A stretch of 64,000 bases of DNA from an uncultured Clostridia bacterium (GTDB lineage: Bacteria > CAYTYR01 > UBA6262). A model generated the notes under the pieces. That model was not told where the DNA came from. It made no database searches and saw only the letters and a program-made list of their open reading frames with translations. The position numbers and the translations under genes were made by a program. This document shows, piece after piece, positions 736 to 29,228 of the stretch (positions within the stretch are counted from its first letter, which is position 1; each line of letters starts with the position of its first letter). The DNA lies in NCBI GenBank assembly GCA_964441745.1, contig CAYTYR010000013.1, positions 1-64,000 of the forward strand, in the 5' to 3' direction.

Positions 736-2676
736 CTATTTTACTACCTGATTAACTTCCACCACAATTCTCTCTGCAAACTTCTGCCCAACTTCCTGTT
801 CACTGGGTACGGCCGCGGAAATAGTCAGGAAATGAGGACGCTCCTCATCCTTCACCACATATTTCGCTTTAACTATGCCGCTATCATTGGTCACTAATTC
901 TGCTCCAGCCAGGTTCCGGCAAGAAGCAGTAATGGCGCCAATTTGGGTCACCGCATAGGATACGGTTTTATTAGCAGCCGGTTGGCCATTTTCATTGTAT
1001 TGTATGGTAATGGTCACTGTATCGCCATTTTTATATACTGGCTGATCTGTGCTGATGGCTAGTTCTTGCTTGATGATCTCTTCTTTGTTAGCCACATAGA
1101 TAACCAGTGGTTGTTTCGTCACCACTTCCTTGCCATCTTTGGTCGTATAGCGGACTTTAAGATCATATTTGCCATCACTGAGGACACTACTATCCAATTC
1201 CGACCGCCACCAGTTAGCCGTGTTAGTCAGTTCTTGCCAGGTTGCGCCGTCAGTCGAATATTCTACTTTAGCCAGGTTCGGCAGTAATGCTGTCTTGGTA
1301 TAAACCTCAACCGGCGCCATACCCTGTACTTTATTGTTATCACGGGGATTGATCACTAATGCTTCATAGAATTTTTCCATAGCTCCGGCTGCCTTGCGCG
1401 GGGAACCAGCCATATTCACATCATCCGGCATAGCTACGATCCCAAACCATTCTTCCGGCTCGGTTTCTTCATGCCGGTCTTCATCGCCTTCACCCTCATT
1501 GTTTTTCCACCACTCATCGATCCAGGAGAAAATGCAGGCGCCATTACCTTTTTCCGCAATCATGGAGTAGGTATCATTAACAATACCGGTGGCCTGCTCA
1601 TCTTCCGTATTGCCGCCATAACCGAATTTTCCCTCACCGCGCTTAGACATGCTATAACCATATTCTGTGCCGATCAGAGGCTTATCTTTAGCCAATGATC
1701 TCTCCATCCAGCTAAGATAACCGCGATAGCCCATATTCACCACATGAGATTTATCATAGCCATAATGGTTGATGCAAATAAAATCCCAGTTCTTGGTTTC
1801 TAACATATCAGAGCGGGGCCAATTAGCCAAAGAGACATAGGCTCCCGGCTGCAGCTCCTTGATCTTGGCGGTAACCAAGTCATAAAATTCATTGGTTTTC
1901 GCCAAACTGGCTTGGGCGATCTTTCCCGGAGGCGGTTCATTCATCAGCAGATAGCCGATAATATTCCCGTGCTCCCGGTTGATCTTCATTTCGTCTTCTA
2001 CTGTGGACAGGGAATTATTCCAGAAGCTCTGATCGGAAAAATCAGCCAAGGGTGGTACCCAGATGCTCATGCCCTGGATGATCAGGAGGCCATATTTGTG
2101 CGCCAGCTCCATCATATACTCGTCCAGGTCCCGGCCAGACCAGTTGCGGATCGTATTAAATCCGATCTTTTTCATCAGCTGGAAATCTTTTTCCACGACA
2201 TCATAATCCCGGGGATACGGTTTGTTGGGAGAGGTATGCGGACGATAGGGTGCATAGCCGATACCGCACACTATGTATTTTTCACCGTTGACATAAATAT
2301 CATCACCGCGGAATTCGACCTTTTCTTTCGGCAGGTTAATGGTGTCAGGCAGTTTAACCGGTATTTCAGCACTGGCTGCGCCATCCTTGCCGCCTTTGGT
2401 CGCTACTACTTTATAAACTGCTTTGCTCCCGGCGGCCGCCTTCTGATCGACATAGAAAGGATCACGCGCCCGGCCCACAACTTTGCCGTCACGGTATACT
2501 TTATAATAGAAAATATCTTCGATCTGCTCCCACATTAAGTAAACCTTGCCCAAAGCTTCCCAGGAGGGAACGACTTTCAGTTTTTCAATGCTGCCGGCAG
2601 CTCCTTGCGCCCAAACCACTGCCGAACTTAGCATAATCGCGGCTATGAGCAGTAATAAAATGACTCTTTTTTTCAT
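736..2676 (-). CDS. Secreted clan GH-A glycoside hydrolase (GH2-TIM-like) with an N-terminal FN3-like domain and C-terminal Ig-like domains
   Basis: Signal peptide; YKVYRDG FN3-like motif; GFNTIR; LMNEP (acid/base); TEYG (nucleophile); DEWWK and EEWFGI motifs. Confidence 0.8.
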   Translation of the reverse strand: MKKRVILLLLIAAIMLSSAVVWAQGAAGSIEKLKVVPSWEALGKVYLMWEQIEDIFYYKVYRDGKVVGRARDPFYVDQKAAAGSKAVYKVVATKGGKDGAASAEIPVKLPDTINLPKEKVEFRGDDIYVNGEKYIVCGIGYAPYRPHTSPNKPYPRDYDVVEKDFQLMKKIGFNTIRNWSGRDLDEYMMELAHKYGLLIIQGMSIWVPPLADFSDQSFWNNSLSTVEDEMKINREHGNIIGYLLMNEPPPGKIAQASLAKTNEFYDLVTAKIKELQPGAYVSLANWPRSDMLETKNWDFICINHYGYDKSHVVNMGYRGYLSWMERSLAKDKPLIGTEYGYSMSKRGEGKFGYGGNTEDEQATGIVNDTYSMIAEKGNGACIFSWIDEWWKNNEGEGDEDRHEETEPEEWFGIVAMPDDVNMAGSPRKAAGAMEKFYEALVINPRDNNKVQGMAPVEVYTKTALLPNLAKVEYSTDGATWQELTNTANWWRSELDSSVLSDGKYDLKVRYTTKDGKEVVTKQPLVIYVANKEEIIKQELAISTDQPVYKNGDTVTITIQYNENGQPAANKTVSYAVTQIGAITASCRNLAGAELVTNDSGIVKAKYVVKDEERPHFLTISAAVPSEQEVGQKFAERIVVEVNQVVK

Positions 2677-2701
2677 TTTTTATGCACTCCTTTACTCTGT
2701 A

Positions 2702-3934
2702 TTAGTTCTCTGTGTTTTCTTCCTGCGGCCATAGTTCCTGCAGGAGGTAGTAAGCTTTCTTGGGCAGACGCCTATTATTACCCATTTCATCCTGTTCCGG
2801 GTCCAGGGAAATTATGCCCCACCATTCTTCGTTCATATTCATTCCTTCCGGAGCTTTAATATCACAATAGTAGGCTCCGTGGCACCATTGCCCGCTGGTG
2901 TCATGGACTGACCAACTGGACGAATCTGCTTCTGCGGCTTTCCACCATTCATCGTTCCATTCAAACACACAGCCACCCAGGCAGTTGCCAACTCCTCCAG
3001 GATTACCAGGCAAATTCTTTTCAATCTCCAGCCATTGGTTGTTAATAAAAGCTGCTTGCGTTTCCTGGTCTTCTCTTTGTTTGAAAGCGTCAAATGAGTC
3101 ACAGCCAAATTCGCTGAAAATAATCGGCTTACCCCATTTGATCTTTACTTCTTTAAATAAATTCCCGAATGACTTGCCGCGATATACAGTCGCACCCAGT
3201 ACATCAACATTGGGACAATAGCGTTTAGCGGCCTCCACATCAGCTATATCGCCGTTACCCATCATGATCGGATGATCCGGGTCGATCTTCTTAACAGCTT
3301 TAGCCACTTTTTCAATAAACTGGTAATAAATTTTCGCTTTGGCCATCCTTTGCTTGAAAGGATCATTCATTGCTTCGATCGCCTTAGTCGTCCAGGGATT
3401 CACTTTTTGCGGCCCGAAAGAGAAGTTATTTTCATTTCCCAGGCACCACATCAGGATCCCTGGTTCATCCTTGTATTCCTTAACCATCCGGAGAACATCG
3501 TCAATAGTTCTTTTTTGGAAATCTTCATCGGCATAGTTAGCTGAAGGATAGGACCAAAAACCGAGATAATGGGTCATGATGGTGCGTATCTGGAATTCTT
3601 CGTACAGGTCCCGGATCAGCTGTCTGGTTTCTGCAGGATTTTCCCCTTCCTGGTAGATCCTGATGGTATTGGCCCCTAATTCCTTCATCATCGGGCCATC
3701 CACATTGATCCAGGGCTTACCCGTATCTCCCCAAAAGTTATGCTCATAATTCTTGCCAATAGGTATCGGGCTATAACAAACGCCATGCACTATAAAGGGG
3801 TTCCCTTCCACTAACAGTTGATACTCCCCGGTTTTTTTCCGGCTAACACTCACGCGCGGTTCTTTCGCCATCACCGCCGTAACCAGGAATAAACTGGCCA
3901 GCAACAACAGCCATGATCCAGGTACTTTTTTCAC
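2702..3934 (-). CDS. Secreted clan GH-A glycoside hydrolase (GH2-TIM-like)
   Basis: Signal peptide; GVCYSPIP, GANTIRIY, LGNEN, SEFG, DEWWK and NEEWWGI motifs. Confidence 0.85.
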   Translation of the reverse strand: MKKVPGSWLLLLASLFLVTAVMAKEPRVSVSRKKTGEYQLLVEGNPFIVHGVCYSPIPIGKNYEHNFWGDTGKPWINVDGPMMKELGANTIRIYQEGENPAETRQLIRDLYEEFQIRTIMTHYLGFWSYPSANYADEDFQKRTIDDVLRMVKEYKDEPGILMWCLGNENNFSFGPQKVNPWTTKAIEAMNDPFKQRMAKAKIYYQFIEKVAKAVKKIDPDHPIMMGNGDIADVEAAKRYCPNVDVLGATVYRGKSFGNLFKEVKIKWGKPIIFSEFGCDSFDAFKQREDQETQAAFINNQWLEIEKNLPGNPGGVGNCLGGCVFEWNDEWWKAAEADSSSWSVHDTSGQWCHGAYYCDIKAPEGMNMNEEWWGIISLDPEQDEMGNNRRLPKKAYYLLQELWPQEENTEN

Positions 3935-3961: not shown

Positions 3962-6900
3962 CTATTTAATAACTGCTATTTTGCCTTTTCTTAAAGTTCC
4001 GCCGTCCTTGATCACATATAAGTAGATCCCGCTGGCTATTCTCCGCCCTAATATATTTTCCAGGTCCCAGCTGAAAGGATTATCCGTAATATCGCTGGCA
4101 GAAAAAACCTCGTCCCCGTTCAGGTCATAAATTTTCAATACCGCGTCACTGGACACATTGATAAAATAAACTTTTCTATCTTGGTTTAGTTTGCACGGAT
4201 TGGGATAAACATAGAAACTATTATCTTGGACTATTTCAAATCCGTTATAAAAGACTCCGGATTGGGTATCCGAATTAGTGACCACGACATCCCAAAAGCC
4301 TGGCGTTTTATTCCTGATATCCAGCAGGCCGGAGATCTGTGTTGCCGAATCATAGCTATGTTCTGTGGCCACGATATCCGGCTCGCCAGTCCTGCTTAAT
4401 TTTATTTGACTCCCGTTATAGAAATTTGTTCCGGTGACCTGGACCCTCACCTGCTTCCGGCTATTAGCCAGTGACGGGGAGATCGCACTGACCGTGAGTA
4501 GATAACTGGTTATGGTAATGGGCATATTCCTGGCAGTAGTAAGGTTCCCGCCTGGATTGATCACCACCAGAGACCAATTCCCCGGGGCTACGCCGGTCAG
4601 ATCGAATTCGGCCGTGATCTTAGCAGTACTGATCATGTTAACTGACTCTGCGGTCATATTATCCTGGCCGGAACGCAGCAGCAGAACCTGCGCTCCTGGC
4701 TGGAAACCAGCTCCTTCTATAGTCAGGGTTTGTCTCCCTAAATTATTGCAGGAATCAGGGGAAACGGAAATAACTTCACAGGCAAATGTTTGGACGGCAA
4801 CCAGGGTTTGCGGTTGCACATAAATACTGCCCTGAGACCCGAAACCATAAAAAGTGATCTTCTGCTCCGCTGTTCCAGGATTGTACGCCACATATGTTTT
4901 CGTACCATCTTTACTGAAGACCGAATGATACGGTGTGTCAGCATACCCGCTGGTATCCACCTGGCCTAACTCTTTGAAATTATAGATCCAGTGGTACAGG
5001 AAACTGTACGTATCCCCATCGCTATCAATAGTCACTGTTTCCCGATATTTATTGATCACTGCCTCTGGATCAGCCATGGCTTGAAATTGCCAGATAATAT
5101 TATACCAGCCATTAAAATGTTCTGGGGCACCATTATCAACCAGAAAAGCATCATAAATCCGTTTAACGTAATCCGCATTATATCCAAGGTACAGCATACT
5201 CGCTGTAGCCGGGATCATTTGGATGCCATAAACACATTCGTCATTAACATGATCCCACCAGGTATCATATAGTATCCGGTCATCATGCAGAATCCCTACC
5301 AGCGGATGATTATACGTAGCACTATAGATATCCTGGTCCATATTAAAATAATAATCACGGATTCCGCTATATTCCGTAGTATATCCGTAAATACCCGTAT
5401 CCCGGATAGTGTCATTATTAGTAACCATACCCCACAAGATCAGGGCGGCCCAGGAATTCATCGCTTCTGAAGAAGACTCCTGGTTATTCCCTTTTTCTGA
5501 CTGAGCCAGGCCGTCGCAATATGAATGCCCCAGATAATGGTCAAAATGGCGCATAAATGGGAACATGGTGTCATTCCTGTTCCAGTTGGCATAATCCCGG
5601 ATCAAATATTCGACCATGGGACCGTAATCATCTTTGAAAGAACTGTCATACATACTTAAAATAGCAGCAGCATAAACCAGGTAACCATAATGATAATGAT
5701 GGTCAGTATAATTATAACCGTAAAATTCAGCGGCATAGCCGACCAGCCCGCTCCAGACCTGATCATAATAGAAAAACCTGGTAGTTTCACCTGCTGTATA
5801 CGTAAACCAGTTAACCAGGATAGTTTTGAGGCGACTGACCAGGTAATTCCTGGTCGCCGTATCCTGCAGTTGTTCGGCAATGGGGATCAGGTTAGCTATT
5901 TTAGCGACCTGTTTCCCGTTAAAATAAGTATCAGTCTTGGACAGGGAAGAATTCTTATCCTTGGCTAACAGTGCTGCCAGGTGCGTTTTGTCATAACTGC
6001 CTTTATCCGGCAGAAAAGGTAATACGCCATGGAAGGTATTGACTGTGGCAAAACCGGTCCCGGCCAATATTTTCATTTTACCCGGCAAAACCGTATAATA
6101 ACGCGTTGCGCTAACCGCCGCAGTAGAGTTCTTGTACTGGTGCGGCAGTAAAGCCATTAATGTTTTTGTCTCTGTGCCTTCCTGAGCAACCGTGGTCAGG
6201 GCAAAAGTATTGGTAACCTGCTGGGTAGTTTCATCATAAGACCAGGAAACCTGGCTGTTGGTTACAAAAGCATACGCGTATTGATAATAGTAAGCCAGGA
6301 CCTGCTTATCTGTTTCCCCGCTGTCTTTCGTCATCAAGGCTACAGAAAAATAACGGCTGGCCGCAGGCATGGTGATGCTGATGGTCGTACCGCTAATGGT
6401 GAAACTGCTGCTGGTTGGAGCAAACAGGCCATAATAACTGGAGCCGTATTTAACTCCGATATGGTTAGTATTAACAGTGCCGTCACTTAAAGTATTGCCA
6501 TTGCTGTCAAAAGCAGTAATAGCCCCGGAAAAAATAATTTTCGGGTCGCAGCCCGAAGAATAGGTTAAATAGACAAACGGCAGACCATGCCCGTAAGTAG
6601 CGGAGATAGTTTTAGTTTTATCAGTTGCGTCTGTCCAGAGAGGGCTGACTGTCCAGTCGCTATAAGCCTCAACCAGGACCCCGGTATTGGCGGCAACGGT
6701 CAGTTCCCGGCCGCTGATATCGCCGCCGATCTCCAGATCCTGGACAAAAGGGGCAGTGATACTGTCAGCCGCTGCCGTAACTGCTGGATAACCGATCTGC
6801 AGGCCTGTACTGACTGCATTCATGGCTAATGGATTGGCAAAATGGTAATACGAATATTCAGAACTGATCAAGGAAGAATACCATTTAGTCGTGGGGACAG

Positions 6901-7066
6901 GCCCGGTGATATTAGTGGTTATATATTGGTCCGCAGGCGGTGAAGTCAATGTTGTTGGCAAAGTGTCAGCATAGCTTCCCTTGCCCACCGCAGTGGCCCC
7001 AGCCTGCCCGCCTATACATATCAGCAAACAAAGAACTGCACAAAATTTAGTCTGATAATAGGTCAT
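3962..7066 (-). CDS. GH81 endo-beta-1,3-glucanase with two IPT/Ig-like domains and a C-terminal sorting-type domain
   Basis: PVPTTKWYSS, YTDHHYHYGY and NQESSSEA GH81 motifs; C-terminus VYPNP...LKIYDLNG...SGIYLY...GKIAVIK. Confidence 0.9.
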   Translation of the reverse strand: MTYYQTKFCAVLCLLICIGGQAGATAVGKGSYADTLPTTLTSPPADQYITTNITGPVPTTKWYSSLISSEYSYYHFANPLAMNAVSTGLQIGYPAVTAAADSITAPFVQDLEIGGDISGRELTVAANTGVLVEAYSDWTVSPLWTDATDKTKTISATYGHGLPFVYLTYSSGCDPKIIFSGAITAFDSNGNTLSDGTVNTNHIGVKYGSSYYGLFAPTSSSFTISGTTISITMPAASRYFSVALMTKDSGETDKQVLAYYYQYAYAFVTNSQVSWSYDETTQQVTNTFALTTVAQEGTETKTLMALLPHQYKNSTAAVSATRYYTVLPGKMKILAGTGFATVNTFHGVLPFLPDKGSYDKTHLAALLAKDKNSSLSKTDTYFNGKQVAKIANLIPIAEQLQDTATRNYLVSRLKTILVNWFTYTAGETTRFFYYDQVWSGLVGYAAEFYGYNYTDHHYHYGYLVYAAAILSMYDSSFKDDYGPMVEYLIRDYANWNRNDTMFPFMRHFDHYLGHSYCDGLAQSEKGNNQESSSEAMNSWAALILWGMVTNNDTIRDTGIYGYTTEYSGIRDYYFNMDQDIYSATYNHPLVGILHDDRILYDTWWDHVNDECVYGIQMIPATASMLYLGYNADYVKRIYDAFLVDNGAPEHFNGWYNIIWQFQAMADPEAVINKYRETVTIDSDGDTYSFLYHWIYNFKELGQVDTSGYADTPYHSVFSKDGTKTYVAYNPGTAEQKITFYGFGSQGSIYVQPQTLVAVQTFACEVISVSPDSCNNLGRQTLTIEGAGFQPGAQVLLLRSGQDNMTAESVNMISTAKITAEFDLTGVAPGNWSLVVINPGGNLTTARNMPITITSYLLTVSAISPSLANSRKQVRVQVTGTNFYNGSQIKLSRTGEPDIVATEHSYDSATQISGLLDIRNKTPGFWDVVVTNSDTQSGVFYNGFEIVQDNSFYVYPNPCKLNQDRKVYFINVSSDAVLKIYDLNGDEVFSASDITDNPFSWDLENILGRRIASGIYLYVIKDGGTLRKGKIAVIK

Positions 7067-7138: not shown

Positions 7139-8365
7139 CTACGGTATCATTTTAATATTTTTAAAATAAACAGTCGATGAAGTAGCACCCCATACGAATT
7201 CGATCGGTATATAAGTTTTAGTCTTATCACAGGTGGTAAACCCGGATAGAGCAAAAGTATAAGTTGTCCAAGTAGTGGTTAAAGTGGCTGTCTTTTTGGT
7301 CTCCAGCCCCAAGTCACCGTCTGTAGTGTCTTTCATGCCAATTTGAATTACTTCACCGCCAACTTCCCCTTTCATATCTACAGACAAGGTAGTATAGCCA
7401 GAATAATCAAAAGCATATTTAATTTCATTAGGATTAAACTCCGTGTTCCAGGGTGTCGGCCACCTGAGGATAAATACTGTACCCCAAGAATTACCCGCAG
7501 GATAGGCACATTTCATATGTGTAGTCATATTGGTAACCCAATCGGTAGCGCCACCGCTGCTGGCAACTCCCATATCATAACCCAGATCACCCTCTGCTGA
7601 TAACTGCTCATTCTCTTCCAGATAAATTGCACCATTAGCTGGAGGAGTCGCAACTAAGGGATAGCTGCTGCCGCCATCAGTGGTAGCAAAAGTATAGTCA
7701 CTGCTGGTACTGGATTTACTGGCGGCATTGGTGCTTTTCACGCGATAATGATATGTTGTACTAGCAGTCAGGTTAGAGAGCGTCACGCTATGACTAGTAG
7801 TGAGGGTGGCCGCTGATTCACTTAGACCATAGGAAGTTGATGTACCATACTCTACCAGGCTGTCAGCAGACTGGTCCGTAGTCCAGGTAATGGTGGCACT
7901 GTCGGCATTAGGAGTGCCGGGACTGACCGCGGAAATAGTTGGAGCTGTGTCATTACTGGGAATAGCATTAGTGACAAAACTAAAACTGCCGTCATCTCCG
8001 GCTTTAGCGGTATTAAGATTAGCATCCCTGCTTTGCACATAGTAATAATAGGTAGTGGCGGCAGTCAAACCGGTAAGATTTATAGAATGCGTTTTCGTCA
8101 TGCTGGCGCCTGTATCTGTTTCATTAATGAATTGGGTCATCTCGCTGCTGCTGGTCCCGAAATACACCTTGGAAGTTGCGACAATATCCGTACTCCAGGT
8201 GATCGTGGCCGTGGTCGTAGTAATGTTTGACTCGGCCACACTGGAAATGACCGGACCGTCAGCTACCAATGCTGTCAACTTATCCTTTTTGGTGCAGGCA
8301 AAAAAGAGCGAAGATAACAATACTATCAGGAGCATTAACGCCGCGGCTTTTTTTGATACTTTCAT
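7139..8365 (-). CDS. Lipoprotein with two FN3-like domains and a C-terminal CBM-like domain
   Basis: Lipobox LFFA-C; two ATITW(S/T)TD...H(S)..L..L...TTY(Y/H)Y repeats; DYSGYTTLSVDMKG...WTTYTF...VYFKNIK. Confidence 0.75.
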   Translation of the reverse strand: MKVSKKAAALMLLIVLLSSLFFACTKKDKLTALVADGPVISSVAESNITTTTATITWSTDIVATSKVYFGTSSSEMTQFINETDTGASMTKTHSINLTGLTAATTYYYYVQSRDANLNTAKAGDDGSFSFVTNAIPSNDTAPTISAVSPGTPNADSATITWTTDQSADSLVEYGTSTSYGLSESAATLTTSHSVTLSNLTASTTYHYRVKSTNAASKSSTSSDYTFATTDGGSSYPLVATPPANGAIYLEENEQLSAEGDLGYDMGVASSGGATDWVTNMTTHMKCAYPAGNSWGTVFILRWPTPWNTEFNPNEIKYAFDYSGYTTLSVDMKGEVGGEVIQIGMKDTTDGDLGLETKKTATLTTTWTTYTFALSGFTTCDKTKTYIPIEFVWGATSSTVYFKNIKMIP

Positions 8366-8401: not shown

Positions 8402-9181
8402 TTACTCGTATTTAATGTCATCCAGGTAGAAAACGATCCCTGACGGATTATCACCGGCTACAGCGACCCAGCAAAATCCGCCATTTATATATGATAGATC
8501 CCTATTTTTTAAGTTAATAGTGTATTTGCGCCATTCTTTTCTTAATACTACCGGCCCAAAATCCACTGAACAAGAATCAGGATAAGTCCCGCTGATCCCG
8601 CCGACCTTGAACTTTTTTATCTTTTCATTGCCCTTGGCGCCGCGCGCCCAGAAGGTGAGTTTGGTTGCGCCGGTCAAATTATACCCGCCTTTTTTTTCAC
8701 CCCAGTTACCGGAGGGATTCTGCCAAAACATGCCCGCCCAGCCGGCTCTTTGTGATTCCCTGGCATTATATTCTATCTTGATGCAGGTCTTGCCAGAATA
8801 AGGTTTTTTCGCATATCCATAATCCAATTTTAGATCTGTATAATCGCCCATCCAGCCGCTCGGAGCATAATGATTGCCGCCACTGGTCTTATCCTGGTAG
8901 ATTAAAAATCCCTTAAAAGCCGGGACTTCAGGGGTAATTTCTTCATCTGGTTTTGTTGCTTCTTCTTTCAATTTTGCTTTGACTTTTCTTTTTACTTTTC
9001 TTTTTGTCTTTGGTTTCACTTTTGGTTTTGCTTTTATTTCCGCTTCTTCAGGGTTCTGGTCTGCAACAATATCAGACAATTCCGGCAGGGCTGTTTCGTC
9101 TTCCTCTTCCGCCCCAGAGCGGAACACAAAAAAATTACACAATAATAAAGAAAATAATATTATTAGTAATGATTTTTTCAT
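8402..9181 (-). CDS. Secreted CBM-like (galactose-binding fold) protein, paralogue 4
   Basis: Signal peptide; charged linker; HYAPSGWMGDY, WQNPSGNWG, LTFWARG and FYLDDIKYE motifs. Confidence 0.75.
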   Translation of the reverse strand: MKKSLLIILFSLLLCNFFVFRSGAEEEDETALPELSDIVADQNPEEAEIKAKPKVKPKTKRKVKRKVKAKLKEEATKPDEEITPEVPAFKGFLIYQDKTSGGNHYAPSGWMGDYTDLKLDYGYAKKPYSGKTCIKIEYNARESQRAGWAGMFWQNPSGNWGEKKGGYNLTGATKLTFWARGAKGNEKIKKFKVGGISGTYPDSCSVDFGPVVLRKEWRKYTINLKNRDLSYINGGFCWVAVAGDNPSGIVFYLDDIKYE

Positions 9182-9197
9182 AAACGCCTTTACTAAC

Positions 9198-9223
9198 AGC
9201 TGCGAACTATGAGCTGCGAGCTA
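9198..9223. repeat. Single heptamer arm (GAGCTGC-type)
   Basis: AGCTGCG-AACTATG-AGCTGCG-AGCTA, 7-nt period. Confidence 0.5.
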
Positions 9224-9233
9224 ATTCACAGGT

Positions 9234-9347
9234 CCCTCTGCTCTGAAGAACGACATAATATTTGCCTCAAAACAGGATGTTGCTATATCTACTATAGAAC
9301 GTCACCATCGTCGGCTTATTTTTATCGTTCCTTCGAGAAGCAGAGGG
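9234..9347. other. 114-nt imperfect rod-like inverted repeat (candidate structured RNA or MITE-like element)
   Basis: CCCTCTGCT/AGCAGAGGG, GAAG-AACGA/TCGTT-C-CTTC, GATGTT/AACGTC and CTATA/TATAG pair in a nested way. Confidence 0.55.
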
Positions 9348-9364
9348 AAACCCGTATTAAACAC

Positions 9365-9447
9365 AAATTCTAAATTCTCCCCTGCTGATTTGTCATAAAA
9401 CCAGACAAATCAAAACGCGGGGACAGGTAAATGACAAATTCTAAATT
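9365..9447. repeat. AAATTCT heptamer arm interrupted by a CCTG-type hairpin element
   Basis: CAAATTCTAAATTC [TCCCCTGCTGATTTGTC...GACAAATC...GCGGGGACAGG] TAAATGACAAATTCTAAATT. Confidence 0.55.
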
Positions 9448-9466
9448 ATGGTTCTTTTCATTTTTA

Positions 9467-10249: not shown

Positions 10250-10281
10250 TGCTTATCCACCTCCATGTCTATAAATGTGGC

Positions 10282-10965: not shown

Positions 10966-10995
10966 GTTTTTACCTACCCCCTCTTCCTTAAGTTT

Positions 10996-18718: not shown

Positions 18719-18747
18719 ATTTTAGCACTTTTGATGATTAAAGTAAA
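18719..18747 (-). promoter_or_regulatory. Promoter of the porV-like/glycanase cluster
   Basis: TTTACT-N17-TAAAAT with extended TG. Confidence 0.5.
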
Positions 18748-21067: not shown

Positions 21068-21084
21068 GCAAAACCTCAATGTAT

Positions 21085-21129
21085 CAGCGGACAGCGGACA
21101 GTTTTTAGCGTATAGCGTTTAGCGTATAG
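21085..21129. repeat. Family A heptamer arm downstream of the four-helix-bundle gene (contains its stop codon)
   Basis: CAGCGGA CAGCGGA CAGTTTT TAGCGTA TAGCGTT TAGCGTA TAG. Confidence 0.85.
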
Positions 21130-21475
21130 GATTGATCATTTTATAAAGCATCGAGCCGACTTCCTTACGCAACTGCTCTAACTCACTATACTCAGGTAAT
21201 TCTAAGTATTTTAAGTCCTTTGCTAATAATAATTGTGTTTCAAACTCTGCCAGCGAACTATAGGCAATACTTAAGAATTGTCGATATTCATTTCTATGTT
21301 GCCTGGCATAACCTTCAGCTATATTTGACGGGATAGATACCGCGGCCCTTCTTATTTGTGAAGTTAATCCGTAGAGTTCATCTTTAGGAAACCGCGAAGT
21401 CACTTTATATGTTTCCAAAGTTAGCTTATAAGATTTCTGCCAGACTATCAAGTCCCTGAAACTTGTCGTTTTCAT
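21119..21475 (-). CDS. Four-helix-bundle protein (23S rRNA IVP / bAvd-like family)
   Basis: FRDLIVWQKS, FPKDELYGLTSQIRRAAVSIPSNIAEG and FLSIAYSSLAE motifs. Confidence 0.93.
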   Translation of the reverse strand: MKTTSFRDLIVWQKSYKLTLETYKVTSRFPKDELYGLTSQIRRAAVSIPSNIAEGYARQHRNEYRQFLSIAYSSLAEFETQLLLAKDLKYLELPEYSELEQLRKEVGSMLYKMINPIR

Positions 21476-21520: not shown

Positions 21521-22810
21521 TTACTCTTCGTATCTCTTACGGATGCGCTCATATTCTTCATCCAGGAACTTGCAAACTTGTTCCGGGGTTTTTTCATTTA
21601 AAATAATAGATTGGATCTCCACATTGACTTTGCTGAGGATCTCGCCCCACAGCGGCGGATTCTGGAACCGGCCATAATAAAGACTGCTCATCCACGGGAC
21701 GAATTTGGCCAATTTAGCGCCGGCCTTCATCTCTTTGCGCGCCGTCAGGTTTACCGGTATATTCTGGCTGGTTTCAGCGTACATTAACTGGGGAACCTTG
21801 CTGGTCAGGAACTTGACAAATTTAACCGCTGCTTCCTTGTTTTTACCATTAGCATTAACGGCAATAGCTGCCCCCGGCCCGCCAGGCAATAAGCACTGGT
21901 TAGCGGCATCAGCCGGCTGGGGAGGATAAAAAACGTCAAAATCCTGGAATTTTGGCGCAGTCTGTTTCCACACGCCGATCTCCCAGGATCCAAACCAGAA
22001 CATTCCCACTTTATTCTGCGGGAAAATATCTTCGCCATTGATCCCGCCGGTGATTCCCCGCATATACATTTTGGCATCGCGCATATCCGCGAAGATCTTA
22101 AAGCTCTTCACCACCCGGGGATCACTAAACTTGACCCGGCCAAAGGTCAAATCGGTAAATCCTTTCGTGCCTAAATAGGCAAAAGCGTAATTCATCCAGA
22201 AAGTATGGTTTTCCCATTGCTGGCCATAAAAATTAGCCACAAAGGGATCAATCCCGGCTGCTCTCAATTTACTGCCGGCAGCGATAAAATCAGTCCAGGT
22301 TTTAGGGACAGCTTTGATCCCTGCTTTTTCAAACAATTTAGTATTATAAAAAATAGCCATGCAATTGGCATCCACCGGCAGACCGTATAAACCGGCTTTT
22401 TTCACGCCATACACCGGCAGGTCTTCAGCCGTAAAGGTAAAACCACGCAGGTAGTTCTCAGGGATGGAGCTTTTCCATTCCTGATCCAGATATGGGGTCA
22501 GATCCAGGAAATGGCCGCCGCGGACATAGGCGGCATAATTAGTAATATTCAAGGTAATCGTCACCAGGTCAGGCAAGGCCTTGCCGCGGGTGGCGGCGCT
22601 CAATCTCCGGTCATAAGCTTCCGGAGGCCCATAATTCTGCACATCTACCTGGATCCCGGTCTGCTTTTCAAAATCGATCGCGATCTTTTTTAAAACCGCG
22701 TCCCGGTCAGTAAAATAATGCCAATAAACCAGTTTGACCGGTTCAGCAAAAAGCGCTGAAACAGACATTACCAGACTTAAAAGCGCGATCAGCCCTGCAA
22801 GTTTTTTCAT
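21521..22810 (-). CDS. Sugar ABC transporter extracellular solute-binding protein (family 1)
   Basis: Signal peptide; LVYWHY, LPDL, LYGLP...AIFYNTKLFEKAG, PKTW and GMFWFGSW motifs. Confidence 0.9.
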   Translation of the reverse strand: MKKLAGLIALLSLVMSVSALFAEPVKLVYWHYFTDRDAVLKKIAIDFEKQTGIQVDVQNYGPPEAYDRRLSAATRGKALPDLVTITLNITNYAAYVRGGHFLDLTPYLDQEWKSSIPENYLRGFTFTAEDLPVYGVKKAGLYGLPVDANCMAIFYNTKLFEKAGIKAVPKTWTDFIAAGSKLRAAGIDPFVANFYGQQWENHTFWMNYAFAYLGTKGFTDLTFGRVKFSDPRVVKSFKIFADMRDAKMYMRGITGGINGEDIFPQNKVGMFWFGSWEIGVWKQTAPKFQDFDVFYPPQPADAANQCLLPGGPGAAIAVNANGKNKEAAVKFVKFLTSKVPQLMYAETSQNIPVNLTARKEMKAGAKLAKFVPWMSSLYYGRFQNPPLWGEILSKVNVEIQSIILNEKTPEQVCKFLDEEYERIRKRYEE

Positions 22811-22917: not shown

Positions 22918-23559
22918 CTATTTTGTCTTTGTTGTTAATTCAACCTTATCAAAACTCCACTCACCCTCGTTCTTGGGGCGCGGCTCAAACTGATAAGTCA
23001 TGATCGGAAAATCAAGAGTCTTATTTTTTGCCGCGTTATTAGGCTGCCAGTCAGTTCTTACTTCAAACGATTTGAAAGGGATGATCACCTGTTTCCAGAC
23101 ATCGCTGTCATCTTTCACCAAGTACCGGAAATACTCTTTTTTAGAGTCAATAATATCCAGCGCCAGCTGTTTTCCGGAGTTAGTGCCTTTCATCCAGAAA
23201 CTGAACGCATTATATTTATCCCATTTTATATCCTGGGGTCTTACCTTCCAGGCCCCAGCGCCTTTGACATCTATATTATAGCCCCTGGCTATCCAGATCC
23301 AGCCGCCAGGCATGGCAAAAAACACTACTTTGAGAGACTGCTTGCCCTCCACTTTATCAGCATCATCGGCATATACTTCCACTGAAGAACCGCCGCCTGA
23401 GCCATAATCAACGTTACCGCTCATTGAGCCGGAGGTAATCCCAGCCGGAATGATCTCACCCTCAAAACCATCCAGCAACAGCGAATCTGCCGCGAAACTA
23501 TTAACTGCACCAAGACTGAGCATTAACATTATTACTAAGCTTGCCAACAACTTATGCAT
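22918..23559 (-). CDS. Secreted CBM11-like carbohydrate-binding protein
   Basis: Signal peptide; LLLDGFEG, WDKYNAFSFWMKG, WKQVIIPFKSF..R.DWQP and LDFPI motifs. Confidence 0.75.
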   Translation of the reverse strand: MHKLLASLVIMLMLSLGAVNSFAADSLLLDGFEGEIIPAGITSGSMSGNVDYGSGGGSSVEVYADDADKVEGKQSLKVVFFAMPGGWIWIARGYNIDVKGAGAWKVRPQDIKWDKYNAFSFWMKGTNSGKQLALDIIDSKKEYFRYLVKDDSDVWKQVIIPFKSFEVRTDWQPNNAAKNKTLDFPIMTYQFEPRPKNEGEWSFDKVELTTKTK

Positions 23560-23792: not shown

Positions 23793-25973
23793 TTACCAGA
23801 GGTAGCTGACCTTAGCTTCGAAATACTGGGGATTAACCTGTTGCCAGTGTCCCGGGTCCATCGAACTGCTGCTGCCATAAACGGCATTGGTCAGGTTCTT
23901 ACCAAGAACGGTCAGGTTCAGGTTCTTTATCCCAACATTTCTAGCTGTGGCTGACAGATCAAGTTCGCCGCCGGTGGACCAAGAATATCCGGACCAACCA
24001 GCTTCATTCGCGTCGTTGCTGCCACGGTTCTGCATCTTCGCGTGGATCTTGTAGATACCAGATACACTGTAATTCTCAGTGATATCATAGTACGCGCCAG
24101 CAGACATATTCCATCTCGGCACAGCAGTTTTATTGAAGTCTGCATCGGTTTCTGTATCGATCACGCCTGATCCGCTTAACAGGTTAGCCGGAGCATTGGT
24201 GATGCGGTTCTTCAGCAACTGGCTGCCGGAAACAAATCCGCCGAAGTTTGACCAGTCGTAGGAAATATTTGCTTCAATACCGCGTACCTGGTGATCGCCT
24301 ACATTGTAGAAACCACGGAGCTGACCAAGGGAAGCATCAACTGCCGGCCAGCTGGTACCTGTGTACACAAAGTTAGCAAAGTCATACAGGATTTCCTGAT
24401 AATAGCTGGCCAGGACTTTCATGTTCTTTACCGGCCGCATATCAACCACGAATTCTGTGGACTCAGCAGTGGTGCACTTCTGGGTACCTCTTAAGGCGAT
24501 GTTGGTCTGTTCAGAGTATCTTTCGAAAGTATTCAACCGGGTAAAGCCCTGTTGGTAGATGCCTTTCAAGAAGAGGTTCTCTATCGGGCTGTACACAACG
24601 GCTGCTTTCGGGAAGAATTTGTGCATCTTTTCTCTGGCATCGCGGAACTGGTTTCCAGGATTGAATTCGCCGACATAACGTCCGCCGCCAGTGATGCTGA
24701 GGTTGTCCAGCAATTGGTACTTAGCATCGAGATAACCTTCAGCCGCGGCAATGTCATTGCCCATTTCGGTAAAGGTGGGCAAAAATTCCGGTGGATCATA
24801 CTGAAAAGCAGAACCTGGGACATTGGGATCCCAATTTCTAGTCTCCGGGTTCCAGGTAACTGACGCGCCTGATCCCTGCGCTGACCATACGCCAACCTGG
24901 GCACCGAGCACGACGCTCAGTTCTTCAGTCGGGTTCATCAAGACGTTGGTATCAAGTTCCCATCTCTTCTCAGTCTTCATTTCATAAGAATCGGTAGGAT
25001 CAGTTGCTTTTAGATGGAACACATCATACATCTGGTAGAAATTATTGAACCTGAGGGTGGTGGTCCAGTCCGTGTTTTTCCAAAATTCAGGCTTTTTGAC
25101 AATAATGTTGACATCGTCAGCATAATTTTCAATGCCCTTTACACGATTAGAATCTGCGTCGTTTACATACTCACGGGTAACTCTTTCTTCCAAACGACGA
25201 TAAGCGAGGGTGAAATCCTTATAGGTCATGTTCGCGAATATCTGGTAATCAGGCAGAGGATTGGTCCAAGCATGGGCATCCATCGCTCTAAAACCGTATC
25301 CACCCCATTCTTCCACGAATCTCTTCGCACCTTTATAATAGGCGGTGTTCACTAACAATTGATAAGAAAGGTCATCACTCGGCTTTTGCGCCATATTCAG
25401 GTTGTAACGAGCCATACCATATTTACCGACTACTACACTGGTATTTACGCCCGTAAACTGCGCCGCACCTTTATGCACGATATTGATGGTGCCTTCCGTG
25501 CCTTGGCCGCCCCACACTGAAGTGTTGGGCCCCTTCACGATTTCGATTCTCTCGACATCGTCAAAAGAGTTCGGCCAGTTGTTTTCGCCCAGGCCCAAGA
25601 AGGTAGGCATCAGCATGCCGTCATACAGGAACAATACCTTGTCATTGGCATAACCAGATACGCCTCTCAGCACCAAGACTTCATCGGCTCCCTTAAATGT
25701 ATGCCAACCACCTTCGATAACCTCAAAAAGGTCATTGACGTTCCTGATGGCATATCTTTCAAGGAACTTCCCGGAAAGGACAGTTACGTTAGCAGCTGCT
25801 TCGTACGTTTTTTCTGTACGTTTGGTAACACCGCTGACCATATCTTCACCGAAGAGGGCCAACTCGGTTACAGCTGCTTCTTCCGCCATTACTGGCACAA
25901 CTAAACTGATCATGATAGCTAAAATAAATAAAGGACGAACTAAATTTTTTAACGCTTTATGCAATTCCATCAT
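23793..25973 (-). CDS. TonB-dependent receptor
   Basis: Plug motifs AANVTVL, LRG, VLFLYDG and VERIEIVKGP..SVWG..GTINIV; C-terminal KNLTN...VSYLW. Confidence 0.88.
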   Translation of the reverse strand: MMELHKALKNLVRPLFILAIMISLVVPVMAEEAAVTELALFGEDMVSGVTKRTEKTYEAAANVTVLSGKFLERYAIRNVNDLFEVIEGGWHTFKGADEVLVLRGVSGYANDKVLFLYDGMLMPTFLGLGENNWPNSFDDVERIEIVKGPNTSVWGGQGTEGTINIVHKGAAQFTGVNTSVVVGKYGMARYNLNMAQKPSDDLSYQLLVNTAYYKGAKRFVEEWGGYGFRAMDAHAWTNPLPDYQIFANMTYKDFTLAYRRLEERVTREYVNDADSNRVKGIENYADDVNIIVKKPEFWKNTDWTTTLRFNNFYQMYDVFHLKATDPTDSYEMKTEKRWELDTNVLMNPTEELSVVLGAQVGVWSAQGSGASVTWNPETRNWDPNVPGSAFQYDPPEFLPTFTEMGNDIAAAEGYLDAKYQLLDNLSITGGGRYVGEFNPGNQFRDAREKMHKFFPKAAVVYSPIENLFLKGIYQQGFTRLNTFERYSEQTNIALRGTQKCTTAESTEFVVDMRPVKNMKVLASYYQEILYDFANFVYTGTSWPAVDASLGQLRGFYNVGDHQVRGIEANISYDWSNFGGFVSGSQLLKNRITNAPANLLSGSGVIDTETDADFNKTAVPRWNMSAGAYYDITENYSVSGIYKIHAKMQNRGSNDANEAGWSGYSWSTGGELDLSATARNVGIKNLNLTVLGKNLTNAVYGSSSSMDPGHWQQVNPQYFEAKVSYLW

Positions 25974-26144: not shown

Positions 26145-28217
26145 TTAAGACAGCTTAAATTTGCTGGCTGAATCCTTCAGGCTCTCCGCGATCTCTTTCA
26201 GGTTTTCGATCGAAGTGGAAATCTCCTCAAAAGTGGCGACTTGTTCTTCGCTCGAAGCGCTGGCTTCCTCAGCGCTGGCCGCTGTTTCCTCAGAGCTAGC
26301 GGCTATATCCTCGATCTGCCCGGCAATATTCTTGGCGGCCTGGCTGATATCCTTAAAGCTCTTGCCGGCATCAGTGGTGACATTCGCTGATTCACCGACA
26401 TCTTTGGCCACTATTTCTACGGCTGTGACAGCTTTATTAGTTTCTGTTTGCACCTCGTTGATAAGCCGCGCGATCTCGCTCGCGCTTTGGGCCGAGCCTT
26501 CAGCTAATTTCCTGACTTCATCCGCGACCACGGCAAAACCGCGGCCAGCCTCCCCGGCCCTGGCTGCTTCAATCGCGGCATTCAGGGAAAGCAGGTTGGT
26601 CTGATCCGCTACCTTAGTTATATAATTAATGATCTCACCGATCTGCATGGAACGCTTGCCCAAGTTTTTGATCAACTCCGCAGATTGATAAGCGCTCTCC
26701 TTGGAATGAGACACTTTGGCAATGACCCCGCTGATATTCTCATCACCGGTTTCAGCGGTCTTAGCCGCTTTTTGCGCTACAGTGGCTACGGTCTGCGTAG
26801 TATCAGATATCTTGGTAATGGATACGGATATCTGGCTGACATTGGAAGCCATCTGCGAGATAGCTTCGCTGGAAGTCCGGGACAAGGAAGCCATTTCATT
26901 GGCCCGGGAATGGATCTGGTTGGAAGATTCCTGTATTTGCGAGATCAGGTCACGCAATCCGGTGATCATGGAGGAAAGCGCGTTGCCGAATAAGTCCTTG
27001 GTGGAACGAGGCTTAATAGCGGTGGTCAAATTGCCGCGGGATATGTCCTGGGTAATATTGGCCATTTCCTGCAGATATTCCACAATTTGCTTAAAGGAAG
27101 TGCCTAAGACGTCAGATTGCGACCGCACCCTGATACTGCCGCTGATGTTGCCTTGTGAAATTTCCTGGGCTAACTGGCTCATTTCCTGGAAATAGCTGAC
27201 CATTTCCTTAAAGGCCACTCCTAAGATATCCTTGTCGCTGCGCGGATGAATATTGCCGCTAATATTACCTTGGGAGATATTCTGGGCCAGCTCGGCCATT
27301 TCCTGCAAATAGGTCACCATTTCTTTAAAAGCATTACCTAACACATCCCGCTCTGACCGCGGCGGGATATCTGTGCTCAGTTCACCCTGGGCGACCAAAT
27401 TGGCATTTTTCGCCATCTCCTCAATATACCTGACCATCTGGTTGAAAGCCCGTCCCAGGTCGCCGATCTCATCATTGGATTTGATCTGCAATTCTTCTTC
27501 TATTTCACCCTGGGAAATCTTCTGGATCTTATAGATCACTTGTTTTAATGGATTTAAGGTATAACGAGAGGCCATAATAATAAGGGCTATGCCAATTAAT
27601 ATTATAATTAAGGTAAAGAGCATTATCAGATATTTTATTTTGCGCAACTCATCGCTAATGCCAGTGGTATTCATGGTGATCTGCACAACGCCGATAATTT
27701 CCTTCTTCACTTCCGCGGACCCGGATTTTTCAGACCGACCGGCGCCCAATCCCATCATGGATTCCAGATCCGACCCCACGCCAGAACCTGCCGACTGGGT
27801 CACCTTGCTGACCACGGGAACAGTAATAACAATAGTTTTGCTATCCGGTTTCTGGTAGGACACTTCCTTAGTTTCCAGGGCTTTTTTCTCAATGTCTGAT
27901 TCTACGGCCTGGTCGATCTTAGTTGACACGCTATGGGATAAGAACCGCCCATCCTTATTAATAATACTAGCCGTGGCCACATCTTTTTCTTTCATCGCGC
28001 TTTCGACAAAATTCCCCAAACTGGTCCGGTCTTCCGCCAGGATACTGAACTGGCAGTTATTGGCAATACCGTTAGCGATCGTTTCTCCTCTTTTTTCCAA
28101 GGCATTCAGCAATAATGTACTCTCGTGATTAATCAGGTACGTACTAAAAAATAAGGCAATCAGCACGATCAGCCCGGCGGTGAACATGATAAGCTTATTT
28201 TGTAGATTCAGTACCAC
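26145..28217 (-). CDS. Methyl-accepting chemotaxis protein with a periplasmic sensor domain and a poly-HAMP array
   Basis: Two TM helices; one HAMP plus four 39-aa repeats; hairpin tip [34 protein letters not shown]. Confidence 0.93.
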
Positions 28218-28283
28218 TTTTTTGTCTCCCTTTTTTAAAGTTAGTCTTCGCTTTGCTCAGTACTAACCGAAATTCCTACCCTA

Positions 28284-29228
28284 TTAATTATATGTTTCCA
28301 CTGCCCGTTTGGTCACATCAGAACTGATCTTAATGCCCAGAGCCCCGGCAGTCTTACTATTGATGGCCAGGTTCAAATTACGCGGATATGCCAGCGGCGG
28401 CAATTCTCCAGTTCCGCCCTTGGCTAATATATCACCGGCCATCGCCCCGGATTGCCGGCCGATATCTTCATAATCAAGCACCGGAGAGGCTATCGCTCCT
28501 ACTTTGACCAGGAAGGAAGCAAATCCGAAGACAGCGACACTGCCTTGCTGGCACTGGTTCATAATGAAGGGGATGGTATCTTTGGTCGCAACGGTGGGAT
28601 CCAGTATCAGCCAAAAAACCTGTATCTTGCCAACCATATCCTTGATGGCTTTGACCACATCCGGCGAAGCAGACACAGAAGTGGCCACAACTGATAAACC
28701 ATAATTACCGGCAACGCTTTTAGCTTCAGTGGCAATGGATTGGCTATAGGTAGGATCATAAATGATCCCAATGCTTTTGGCATTAGGAATGATTTCTTTG
28801 ATCGTCTCTAACGATTGTTTGACCGGAACATCGAGGGCCACGCCGGTGACATTAGCTTTAAGGACCTTTTGCTTGGCAGGACTAAGGACCATGGAAAAAA
28901 CAATAGGTTTATTGCTGACCTTTTCCGAAGCAGCTTTCACTGCTTCAGTGCCAATCGCGTAAATCAAATCAAAACTACCCAGGTTTCCAGGGATCCCAGC
29001 CAAATCAGAGTACGTTATTTTGAGATTACTGCCTTCGGCGTATCCCTTACTTCTCATCTCTTTCTTAAATCCCTCCAAAGCCATATTATACTGGGGCAGG
29101 TTCTGGCTCTTGATAATAATGATATTTTCAGCTAAAGAAAAAGATTGGAACAACAAGAGGATTAAAACAGAAAGGATGAACGGGGAAAAGATTTTTTTTA
29201 CCATTTGTTTTTTTGTCACCATCACCAT
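28284..29228 (-). CDS. ABC-type substrate-binding protein (ABC_sub_bind-like) with no adjacent permease
   Basis: Signal peptide; AIGTEA, PIVFSMVLSP, NVTGV, IGIIYDP, DYEDIGRQSG and LAINSKTA motifs. Confidence 0.8.
   Translation of the reverse strand: MVMVTKKQMVKKIFSPFILSVLILLLFQSFSLAENIIIIKSQNLPQYNMALEGFKKEMRSKGYAEGSNLKITYSDLAGIPGNLGSFDLIYAIGTEAVKAASEKVSNKPIVFSMVLSPAKQKVLKANVTGVALDVPVKQSLETIKEIIPNAKSIGIIYDPTYSQSIATEAKSVAGNYGLSVVATSVSASPDVVKAIKDMVGKIQVFWLILDPTVATKDTIPFIMNQCQQGSVAVFGFASFLVKVGAIASPVLDYEDIGRQSGAMAGDILAKGGTGELPPLAYPRNLNLAINSKTAGALGIKISSDVTKRAVETYN

Follow-up and report, generated by a model that had tools for sequence, protein, structure and literature searches.

A putative beta-glucan utilisation cluster with a large plug-less outer-membrane barrel in an Elusimicrobiota-type diderm bacterium

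The window analysed here is a 64-kb stretch (64,000 nucleotides) of contig CAYTYR010000013.1 from assembly GCA_964441745.1, deposited as an uncultured Clostridia bacterium, and its first part holds a gene cluster that we describe as a putative beta-glucan utilisation system with a large outer-membrane barrel. We scanned 49 open reading frames (ORFs) in the window and searched the 26 ORFs of 736-34906 against Pfam at E<=0.01. Domains were assigned through Pfam and NCBIfam curated cut-offs, PDB sequence searches (phmmer), and AlphaFold models (AF2) compared by Foldseek. Positions 736-29228 contained 21 ORFs, all on the minus strand, to which all gene coordinates below refer; the domains given to them in a preliminary description, made from the sequence alone, were found again by Pfam and NCBIfam, with a structural model confirming the barrel. 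That the cluster genes share one direction is uninformative, because every ORF retained as a gene in the whole window is on the minus strand. The carbohydrate genes are all located within 736-25973 and the remaining ~35 kb, composed of housekeeping genes and a few defence-type genes, holds none, a clustering beyond chance.

The gene at 13145-15928 encodes a barrel, followed by a FlgD-type Ig domain and then an OmpA peptidoglycan-binding domain (Pfam 82.8 bits), and its start at 15928 agrees with a 927-aa database copy. Through AF2 modelling with a 46-sequence alignment (pLDDT 86.0, pTM 0.83), the barrel part was predicted to be almost wholly beta, with 29 strand elements of at least six residues, and the barrel itself covers about residues 30-645 (~620 aa). 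The first strand starts at residue 30, straight after the signal peptide, and there was no Plug match in Pfam, so that the plug inside a 22-strand barrel that marks TonB-dependent transporters was not found. In Foldseek every listed match was an outer-membrane barrel (TM 0.21-0.41), including TonB transporters, chitoporins (7vtz, 7vu2), OccK/OprD porins, SusC, ushers and MtrB; TonB-dependent transporters headed the list at TM of only 0.29-0.37. The barrel part (~650 residues) showed no Pfam match, none was recurrent in 15 alignment members at E<=5, and a PDB search with the family profile was empty at E<=10. The model and these searches indicate a large outer-membrane barrel that lacks a plug and represents a new sequence family; under the usual topology the Ig and OmpA domains would be periplasmic. 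The family has 32 clear members in a 90% collection, the named ones mostly Elusimicrobia or Endomicrobiia, and 240 representatives at E<=1e-3 in a 50% library. Feature comparison by a language model gave DUF6029, Msp outer sheath protein and Porin_4 as look-alikes of two barrel homologues, which we take as leads only. Two other barrel tests were superseded by the AF2 model: a single-sequence count of amphipathic strands did not tell the barrel from soluble proteins, and an alignment-based scan gave 33 period-2 segments in the barrel, a result in which beta-sandwiches would score alike.

Through sequence comparison, we found homology between the barrel and the C-terminal half of ~1040-aa proteins with an N-terminal domain of the glycoside hydrolase (GH) clan GH-A; a 'glycoside hydrolase family protein' named as Dokdonia donghaensis matched it with 24% identity (E 4e-20). 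Among 33 long (>=758 aa) distant barrel representatives, 21 contained an N-terminal GH-A TIM-barrel domain, and Pfam assigned Glyco_hydro_2_C to 20 of the 33, Glyco_hydro_72 only to one, CBM_4_9 to one and nothing to 11. All 19 fusions tested matched the second GH-A enzyme of the cluster (2702-3934) over about 400 aa, with 30-37% identity and E from 3e-80 to 6e-55. Since this enzyme is GH158-like and such an enzyme would sit at the periplasmic mouth of the barrel in the fusions, we favour the barrel as a dedicated entry route.

Seven proteins like carbohydrate-binding modules (CBMs), two of them lipoproteins, had been counted before at this locus, and our searches arrived at the same set: one stand-alone CBM11 protein (22918-23559), four tandem paralogues (8402-11607), and the lipoproteins at 12444-13148 and 7139-8365. 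Six of the seven have in common an unnamed domain for which we use the working name CBMx. The CBM11 protein (CBM_11 73.3 bits against a cut-off of 27) is the sole member of a named CBM family in the window. The paralogues a (8402-9181), b (9467-10249), c (10282-10965) and d (10996-11607) share a ~165-residue domain with 48-53% pairwise identity; a is composed of a signal peptide, a Lys/Glu/Pro-rich linker and the CBMx domain, and b and c were assigned by the CBMx family hidden Markov model (HMM) and paralogue identity. Compared as DNA repeats, the four agree at only 62-71%, and the duplications are therefore old. The lipoprotein at 12444-13148, with a lipobox Cys that is invariant in 13 of 13 aligned orthologues, carries the CBMx domain (169 bits with the family HMM), and its gene start overlaps the barrel gene stop by 4 nt. 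The lipoprotein at 7139-8365 has an FN3-FN3-CBMx-like arrangement (Pur_ac_phosph_N/fn3 matches, and a Cys after the signal peptide in the translation), and its C-terminus is distantly related to CBMx (hhalign probability 73.5%, E 3e-5).

No Pfam match at E<=0.01 was obtained for the four paralogues or the 12444-13148 lipoprotein, and the CBMx profile found nothing in the PDB at E<=10. The AF2 model of paralogue d is a beta-sandwich (pLDDT 89.0, pTM 0.79), and its 121 Foldseek matches at E<=1e-3 were headed by CBM30 (1wmx and 2c24; E 3e-7, TMt 0.57-0.65), followed by CBM11 (6r3m and 1v0a; E 4-5e-6) and then CBM8, CBM29, CBM22 and CBM4. The predicted fold supports CBMx as CBM30/CBM11-like by fold and not by sequence membership, and carbohydrate binding is putative. 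The family comprised 2206 clusters (90% identity) of 111-356 aa at E<=1e-3 and another 1290 longer clusters. Among 120 listed of the 2206 there were no precomputed Pfam domains, the named ones were all 'hypothetical', and many were named Omnitrophota or Elusimicrobia. Among 120 listed of the 1290 longer clusters, 117 were two-domain tandems, two had four domains and one had five; one metagenomic protein among these listed long relatives combined a GH17 fragment with four CBMx domains. Weak CBM30 Pfam matches occurred in multi-domain relatives, the best at 31.4 bits against a cut-off of 27.

Proteins in which CBMx is joined to an Ig and an OmpA domain were found in five related loci (L006, L007, L009, L010 and L011). 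In L006, L007 and L009, which are all three complete loci with an OmpA-less barrel, the CBMx-Ig-OmpA protein is present, and L010 and L011 have both the barrel-OmpA and the CBMx-Ig-OmpA forms. Thus the Ig-OmpA anchor swaps between the barrel and CBMx. The CBMx-Ig-OmpA proteins have a signal peptide or a lipobox and no outer-membrane-spanning part. Because CBMx shares a polypeptide with a peptidoglycan-binding domain without such a part in these five loci, the CBMx proteins are probably periplasmic and not surface binders.

Beside these families the cluster contains four enzymes. The gene at 3962-7066 encodes a homologue of GH81 endo-beta-1,3-glucanases with two TIG/CoaZ repeats and a C-terminal type A domain of the type IX secretion system (T9SS). 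It matched Pfam Glyco_hydro81C with 199.8 bits (cut-off 25.6), PDB 6fop with E 4e-153 across residues 28-740, and the Bacillus halodurans GH81 structures (BH0236) with E about 1e-112. The conserved acidic motifs of the GH81 active site, DHH-aromatic-HYGY and E-S-S-S-E, are both present and aligned to 6fop. The family assignment is secure by these sequence matches. The T9SS type A model TIGR04183 (cut-off 23) gave 34.4 bits for the GH81 protein and 26.7 bits for the third of three clan GH-A TIM-barrel enzymes.

GH-A enzyme 1 (736-2676) is composed of a signal peptide, an FN3-like N-terminus, the TIM barrel and an Ig-like C-terminus. It matched Glyco_hydro_2_C (1.5e-9) and, over residues 117-542, PDB 9fz9 (1.3e-42), a 'GH2 catalytic domain-containing protein' for which we found no associated paper, including in the GH-A and laminarin literature. 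Enzyme 2 (2702-3934) has a signal peptide and no C-terminal sorting domain, and its top PDB match was GH158(Pro) 9oro (2.2e-11, phmmer). The part of PMC13195107 that treats the catalytic residues of GH158(Pro) gives Glu143 as acid/base and Glu229 as nucleophile; the 9oro chain numbering is offset by 8 from it by our own count. The glutamates of the GNE and SEFG motifs of enzyme 2 align with both catalytic Glu of 9oro. Enzyme 3 (15994-17496, its true start probably later than 17496) carries the second T9SS type A C-terminal domain and showed 29% identity to enzyme 2, Glyco_hydro_2_C at 6.8e-20 and weak matches to GH2 and GH158 structures (9oro at 4.7e-6 by phmmer); the 6pal match in the GH158 comparison was 1.1e-3 (phmmer). 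Enzyme 2 is far nearer to the barrel-fusion proteins (up to 3e-80) than to 9oro. In a tree of 27 GH-A domains, it belonged to a group joining the barrel-fusion proteins with moderate support (88/79), enzyme 3 formed a clade of the window, L001, L003, L004, L006 and L007 (support 96/93), and enzyme 1 was a long-branch outlier. Enzyme 1 appears to be of a different family from enzymes 2 and 3.

Related loci were collected through a barrel-profile scan of species-representative genomes, in which 14 of 36 pattern matches were confirmed, and were mapped by blastp and HMMs, with core-only loci examined within +/-10 kb. They are mostly named Elusimicrobiota, and four of them are near-identical in layout by descent. 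Every locus contained one barrel and CBMx (14/14), and the CBMx lipoprotein was directly or closely downstream of the barrel in 13/14, the contig of the last ending first. GH-A enzymes were found in 10/14, often right beside the barrel, the DUF5683 protein in 8/14, and the binding protein with two permeases in 5/14 (L001, L004 and L009-L011). The remaining genes were less frequent: GH81 in 4/14 (L001-L004), the PorV-like protein in 4/14, CBM11 in 2/14 and the TonB receptor in 1/14 (L001). The closest locus is L001, with a barrel domain 87% identical to that of the window (tblastn); NCBI lists it as unclassified Elusimicrobiota, and from it we derive the probable affiliation of the window. In the four loci with GH81, which are close relatives, the barrels share 80-85% identity with the window's. 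The recurrence of GH81, the TonB receptor and CBM11 is weak evidence, because it is confined to close relatives, for which synteny would be expected in any case. The preliminary description had proposed co-occurrence across genomes as a check, and its outcome was divided: the core of barrel, CBMx and CBMx lipoprotein recurs, and those three genes do so only in close relatives.

The DUF5683 protein (11631-12362, Pfam 28.4 bits) has a signal peptide and two hydrophobic helices, as do its orthologues in L001, L004, L008, L009, L012 and L013. At their C-terminus these proteins bear an aromatic-x-aromatic-x-F-type motif (aromatic-x-F at the end of the window protein) resembling the C-terminal signal of outer-membrane proteins, which in the window clade is preceded by a long spacer rich in Lys and then in Glu. 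That it docks onto the barrel is only a guess. In L009 (39-8549) we observed a GH94 gene, of a phosphorylase family, and a GH5 gene beside the ABC (ATP-binding cassette) importer, a GH-A enzyme and the barrel; given these two genes, the core may serve different beta-glucans in different lineages. NCBIfam returned nothing for the GH94, the GH5 and the unidentified locus proteins, and a 923-aa protein upstream of the barrel in L012 had no PDB or Pfam match. Five loci (L004-L007 and L009) come from metagenome-assembled genomes labelled Clostridia or Caldiserica, yet they contain OmpA-anchored barrels, PorV-like proteins and lipoproteins syntenic with those of Elusimicrobiota loci, and these labels are probably binning or classification errors.

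Next to enzyme 3 lies a gene for a PorV/PorQ-family outer-membrane protein (17544-18686), which matched NF033709 with 152.2 bits (cut-off 90) and stayed below the equivalog cut-offs of PorV (59.5 against 250) and PorQ (76.6 against 220). A sugar importer of the CUT1 type follows, composed of a MalG-like permease (18958-20094), a MalF/GlcT-like permease (20180-21079), both assigned by Pfam and NCBIfam, and a SBP_bac_1 sugar-type solute-binding protein (21521-22810, 133.4 bits). Among CUT1 importers an ATPase that is encoded elsewhere and shared is common. Wedged between the binding-protein and permease genes, the unrelated gene at 21119-21475 encodes a four-helix-bundle protein of the 23S-rRNA 'IVS' kind (bAvd-like); L001 has no counterpart there, L004 has a 78-aa relative elsewhere (4442-4678), and the gene looks like a small inserted passenger.

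The TonB-dependent receptor (23793-25973) contains Plug and barrel Pfam domains, and its 13 NCBIfam matches included neither a SusC/RagA model nor a glycan-type model; its position is what suggests a link to the system. No SusD Pfam family was detected among the 26 ORFs of 736-34906, and the 49 scanned ORFs contained no cytoplasmic glycosidase or phosphorylase. The preliminary description had stated that the locus lacks SusC/SusD architecture, an ABC ATPase, a regulator and a cytoplasmic glucosidase or phosphorylase, and the scanned ORFs agree with it on each point. At the far end of the ORF series, a methyl-accepting chemotaxis protein (MCP, 26145-28217; sCache_4, HAMP and MCPsignal domains) is directly downstream of a gene for a PF04392/TrpX-like binding protein (28284-29228), which does not belong to the sugar-transport genes and is preceded by a promoter-like site of its own at 29437-29409. 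The two probably form a separate binding-protein-assisted chemoreceptor pair, and a glycan is an unlikely ligand for it. The MCP occurred in no related locus, and only L001 reaches that side, ending inside the TonB receptor gene.

Promoter and terminator sites were located by consensus scans, which are weak evidence. Strong promoter-like sites precede the genes for the PF04392 protein, the TonB receptor and CBM11, and the last of these is followed by a hairpin of 12 pairs that resembles a terminator. Upstream of the PorV-like gene, at 18719-18850 on the minus strand, a block of ~170 nt is near-invariant in the window, L001 and L004; a match to promoters of the extended -10 type (TTTACT, 17 nt, TG-n-TAAAAT) lies in it, as does a short hairpin that is also conserved. 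This block is likely the start of a transcription unit spanning the PorV-like gene to enzyme 1, and the cluster likely consists of several transcription units rather than one operon.

A second conserved block, non-coding and on the minus strand, occupies 9226-9360 (~135 nt) in the gap between CBMx paralogues b and a. It showed 91.5-95.4% nucleotide identity to L001-L004 versus 68-89% for the neighbouring genes, and folded into a single long, imperfectly paired hairpin (52 pairs, -52.1 kcal/mol, z -5.39). We found no Rfam match and no further copy in the window or the 14 loci; a covariance model recovered only its five training copies, among which variation is scant and only two pairs are compensatory. 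Its membership of the system is uncertain; it could act in front of the CBMx a, GH81 and GH-A genes, either as a cis-regulatory leader or as a site of processing.

We consider it somewhat more probable than its alternatives taken together that these genes form a beta-glucan utilisation cluster of an Elusimicrobiota-type diderm, tuned to beta-1,3-glucan in the lineage of the window and using the plug-less barrel for entry. The beta-1,3 specificity would follow from the GH81 enzyme and the likeness of enzyme 2, with both catalytic Glu aligned, to GH158; a beta-1,3-glucan system had already been proposed, and a beta-glucan target, plausibly beta-1,3, is supported. We infer every localisation and activity in the following scheme. 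GH81 and enzyme 3, with their T9SS-type C-terminal domains, would be exported, aided by the adjacent PorV/PorQ-family protein, and would cut the polymer outside. Fragments would then pass the outer membrane via the plug-less barrel, anchored by its OmpA domain to peptidoglycan, and possibly also via the TonB receptor. In the periplasm enzymes 1 and 2, which have signal peptides and no sorting domain, would shorten the fragments, and the CBMx array of four soluble paralogues and two lipoproteins would hold the glucan chains, with lipid, the long Lys/Glu/Pro-rich linkers or, in other genomes, OmpA as the tether. The CUT1-type binding protein and two permeases would bring the products into the cell with an ATPase encoded elsewhere. 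Judged from the comparison of loci, the barrel, the CBMx lipoprotein, CBMx and the GH158-like enzyme appear to be the conserved heart of the system, GH81, CBM11, the TonB receptor and the PorV-like protein appear to be additions of this clade, and GH81, the TonB receptor and the chemoreceptor would be add-ons of the lineage or unlinked.

Several observations weigh against this reading. Among the 14 loci GH81 was seen only in four close relatives, and L008, L012 and L013 keep the core without a recognisable GH or sugar importer within +/-10 kb; in L012 and L013 the core adjoins type II secretion/pilus-type genes and an autotransporter, and the core may have a more general envelope role. The Foldseek TM-scores of the barrel model (0.21-0.41) are low. 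The CBM call for CBMx depends on the fold, one GH17 fusion and weak CBM30 Pfam matches, and hhalign revealed no relation between CBMx and the CBM11 protein (probability 1.5%). CBMx is 55-60% identical to Omnitrophota-named proteins, which is unusually high for a CBM, and this conservation and the wide spread would fit a structural ligand as well as a nutrient. Enzyme 1 is without a known substrate, and CBM11, CBM30, GH5 and GH94 indicate beta-1,4 or mixed-linkage glucans as much as beta-1,3. The core T9SS genes (SprA, PorU, PorK-N) are not in the window, and neither are TonB-ExbBD, an ABC ATPase or a regulator. In the portion of a sorting study that concerns them, Elusimicrobia cells stuck to cellulose particles (PMC7031533), which would fit surface binders over periplasmic ones.

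A more specific reading of the core, at present rather doubtful, is that the barrel works as a hitherto undescribed, TonB-independent glucan uptake machine with the CBMx lipoprotein coupled to it, the array of CBMx proteins in the periplasm and the GH158-like enzyme. A glucan chain would thread the plug-less barrel, peptidoglycan-tethered CBM-like modules would catch its periplasmic end, and a glucanase at the barrel exit, fused to the barrel in Flavobacteriia-type proteins, would cleave it. Inward movement would be driven by binding and hydrolysis, not by TonB energy.

The alternative that survives best is that the cluster is a mosaic, in which GH81, the GH-A enzymes and the ABC importer are catabolic and the barrel-OmpA protein, CBMx and DUF5683 form a general envelope module, for example a major porin or an outer-membrane-to-peptidoglycan tether, merely adjacent in some genomes. 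We think this unlikely, though it accounts for L008, L012 and L013, where no GH or importer gene accompanies the core, and for OmpA anchors on either the barrel or CBMx. It also agrees with the high conservation of CBMx and its great abundance among proteins named Omnitrophota, where it mostly stands as one or two domains with nothing attached, and with the language-model resemblance of a barrel homologue to Msp outer sheath protein and Porin_4, leads only. However, a GH158-like domain is fused to the barrel in 21 of the 33 long homologues, GH-A genes accompany it in 10 of the 14 loci, often immediately beside it, and sugar ABC importers recur in the divergent loci L009-L011; the CBM30/CBM11-like fold of CBMx and its one GH17 fusion also speak for a link to glycans.

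A role in export or remodelling, with the barrel, a periplasmic GH-A enzyme and glucan-binding modules processing a self-made periplasmic or extracellular beta-glucan, is improbable. The topology of outer-membrane barrels is established, and the fusion order, enzyme N-terminal and barrel C-terminal, puts the enzyme in the periplasm beneath the barrel, where CBMx probably also resides. Synthase-dependent exopolysaccharide systems likewise pair an outer-membrane barrel with a periplasmic hydrolase, as in BcsC/BcsZ and PgaA/PgaB. However, no glycosyltransferase or synthase was found among the window ORFs or the scanned locus ORFs, and the importer-type genes, the GH94 phosphorylase of L009 and the exported GH81 and GH-A enzymes indicate catabolism.

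We give equally little credence to the model of the preliminary description, a complete module like a polysaccharide utilisation locus with CBM-like proteins and enzymes at the surface, import by the TonB receptor and sensing by the chemoreceptor: the genes are adjacent, two lipoproteins are among the CBM-like proteins, L001 has the TonB receptor and CBM11 in the same place, and the particle binding outlined in PMC7031533 agrees with it, whereas the CBMx-OmpA fusions favour the periplasm, the MCP adjoins a PF04392/TrpX-like gene in a pair with its own promoter-like site, and the divergent loci lack the TonB receptor, which matches no glycan-type model. The claim of complete sensing is not supported, with the MCP paired to a non-sugar protein and found in no related locus fetched. 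Surface digestion would be left to the two T9SS-domain enzymes, as the fusions in five loci place the CBM-like proteins probably in the periplasm. The conserved core also differs from the parts stressed before: it is the barrel, the CBMx lipoprotein and CBMx, with or without DUF5683, the GH158-like enzymes and the ABC importer.

The beta-glucan utilisation cluster that we favour resembles several known systems in part. In Bacteroides, the 1,3-beta-glucan utilisation locus (1,3GUL) of B. uniformis, as outlined in PMC7157763, combines GH16_3, GH158 and GH3 with SusC/SusD, SGBP-B and an HTCS (hybrid two-component system). Compared with this outline, the window has likewise clustered beta-1,3-glucanases including a GH158-type GH-A enzyme, binding proteins, an outer-membrane transporter and an uptake route, and differs from it in the absence of a SusC-type transporter, SusD, HTCS and GH3 from the cluster. 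The endo-enzyme is GH81 here and GH16 in the outlined locus, the binding proteins are of another fold family and probably periplasmic, inner-membrane uptake would be by an ABC importer, and the enzyme-linked outer-membrane component is a plug-less barrel.

Sugar-porin systems of Proteobacteria include maltoporin in the mal regulon, and chitoporin, which acts with an ABC importer and chitin-degrading enzymes of the periplasm. In the proposed scheme the window shares with them a barrel independent of TonB, processing in the periplasm, and an ABC importer with its solute-binding protein. However, its barrel is much larger (~620 aa, 29 strand elements) and has no PDB sequence relative, and it differs further in the Ig-OmpA tail, the arrays of CBM-like modules and the fusion of a glucanase to the barrel in other phyla. 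Since the SusC and SusD searches were negative and the barrel belongs to no known porin family, we place the cluster in neither the 1,3GUL nor the sugar-porin kind.

The 'CUT loci' of Xanthomonas and others are carbohydrate loci with a TonB receptor and without SusD. The window similarly has a TonB receptor near glycoside hydrolases and an inner-membrane sugar transporter and no SusD, whereas the receptor is outside the conserved core (again only in L001) and no regulator is in the cluster. As in the T9SS/PorV of Bacteroidota, two hydrolases carry type A C-terminal domains and a PorV/PorQ-family barrel is adjacent; in contrast, the closest relatives bear Elusimicrobiota names, the scores stay below the equivalog cut-offs of PorV and PorQ, and SprA, PorU and PorK-N are missing from the window. 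The order of a barrel first and a periplasmic OmpA_C domain second is that of OmpA/OprF-type proteins, whereas the barrel here is several times larger and unrelated in sequence, and the OmpA module can move to the CBMx partner.

In the literature on Elusimicrobia with GH81, T9SS or laminarin, we found no description of such a locus, a weak result because the barrel and CBMx families are nameless. There is a real chance that the outer-membrane part is a new kind of uptake device. To our knowledge, how polysaccharide fragments pass the outer membrane in diderms outside Bacteroidota is largely unknown, and 'selfish' periplasmic uptake has been reported in phyla without SusCD. The cluster offers a concrete candidate, tying two uncharacterised families, the barrel and CBMx, to GH158-like beta-1,3-glucanases on evidence of three kinds independent of each other, from gene neighbourhoods, from fusions and from the swapping of domains. 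If the reading as a TonB-independent uptake machine is true, it would be a third outer-membrane route for polysaccharide capture, beside SusCD and simple sugar porins, and would assign a role to a domain family that occurs in thousands of protein clusters, the named ones mostly Omnitrophota or Elusimicrobiota. CBMx would thereby gain a first functional handle as a very common Omnitrophota protein family, and the locus hints at beta-glucan use in the poorly known Elusimicrobiota of groundwater and sediment.

In the rest of the window, HepT-like, Mrr-type restriction endonuclease and AbiEii-type genes at 42000-46000 split the genes for the small and large subunits of exonuclease VII, and GC content is low within this defence-type stretch (0.374 at 42001-44000). 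A 6S RNA gene is located at 51433-51588 on the minus strand (Rfam RF00013, 64 bits), the sole Rfam match of the window at the gathering score.

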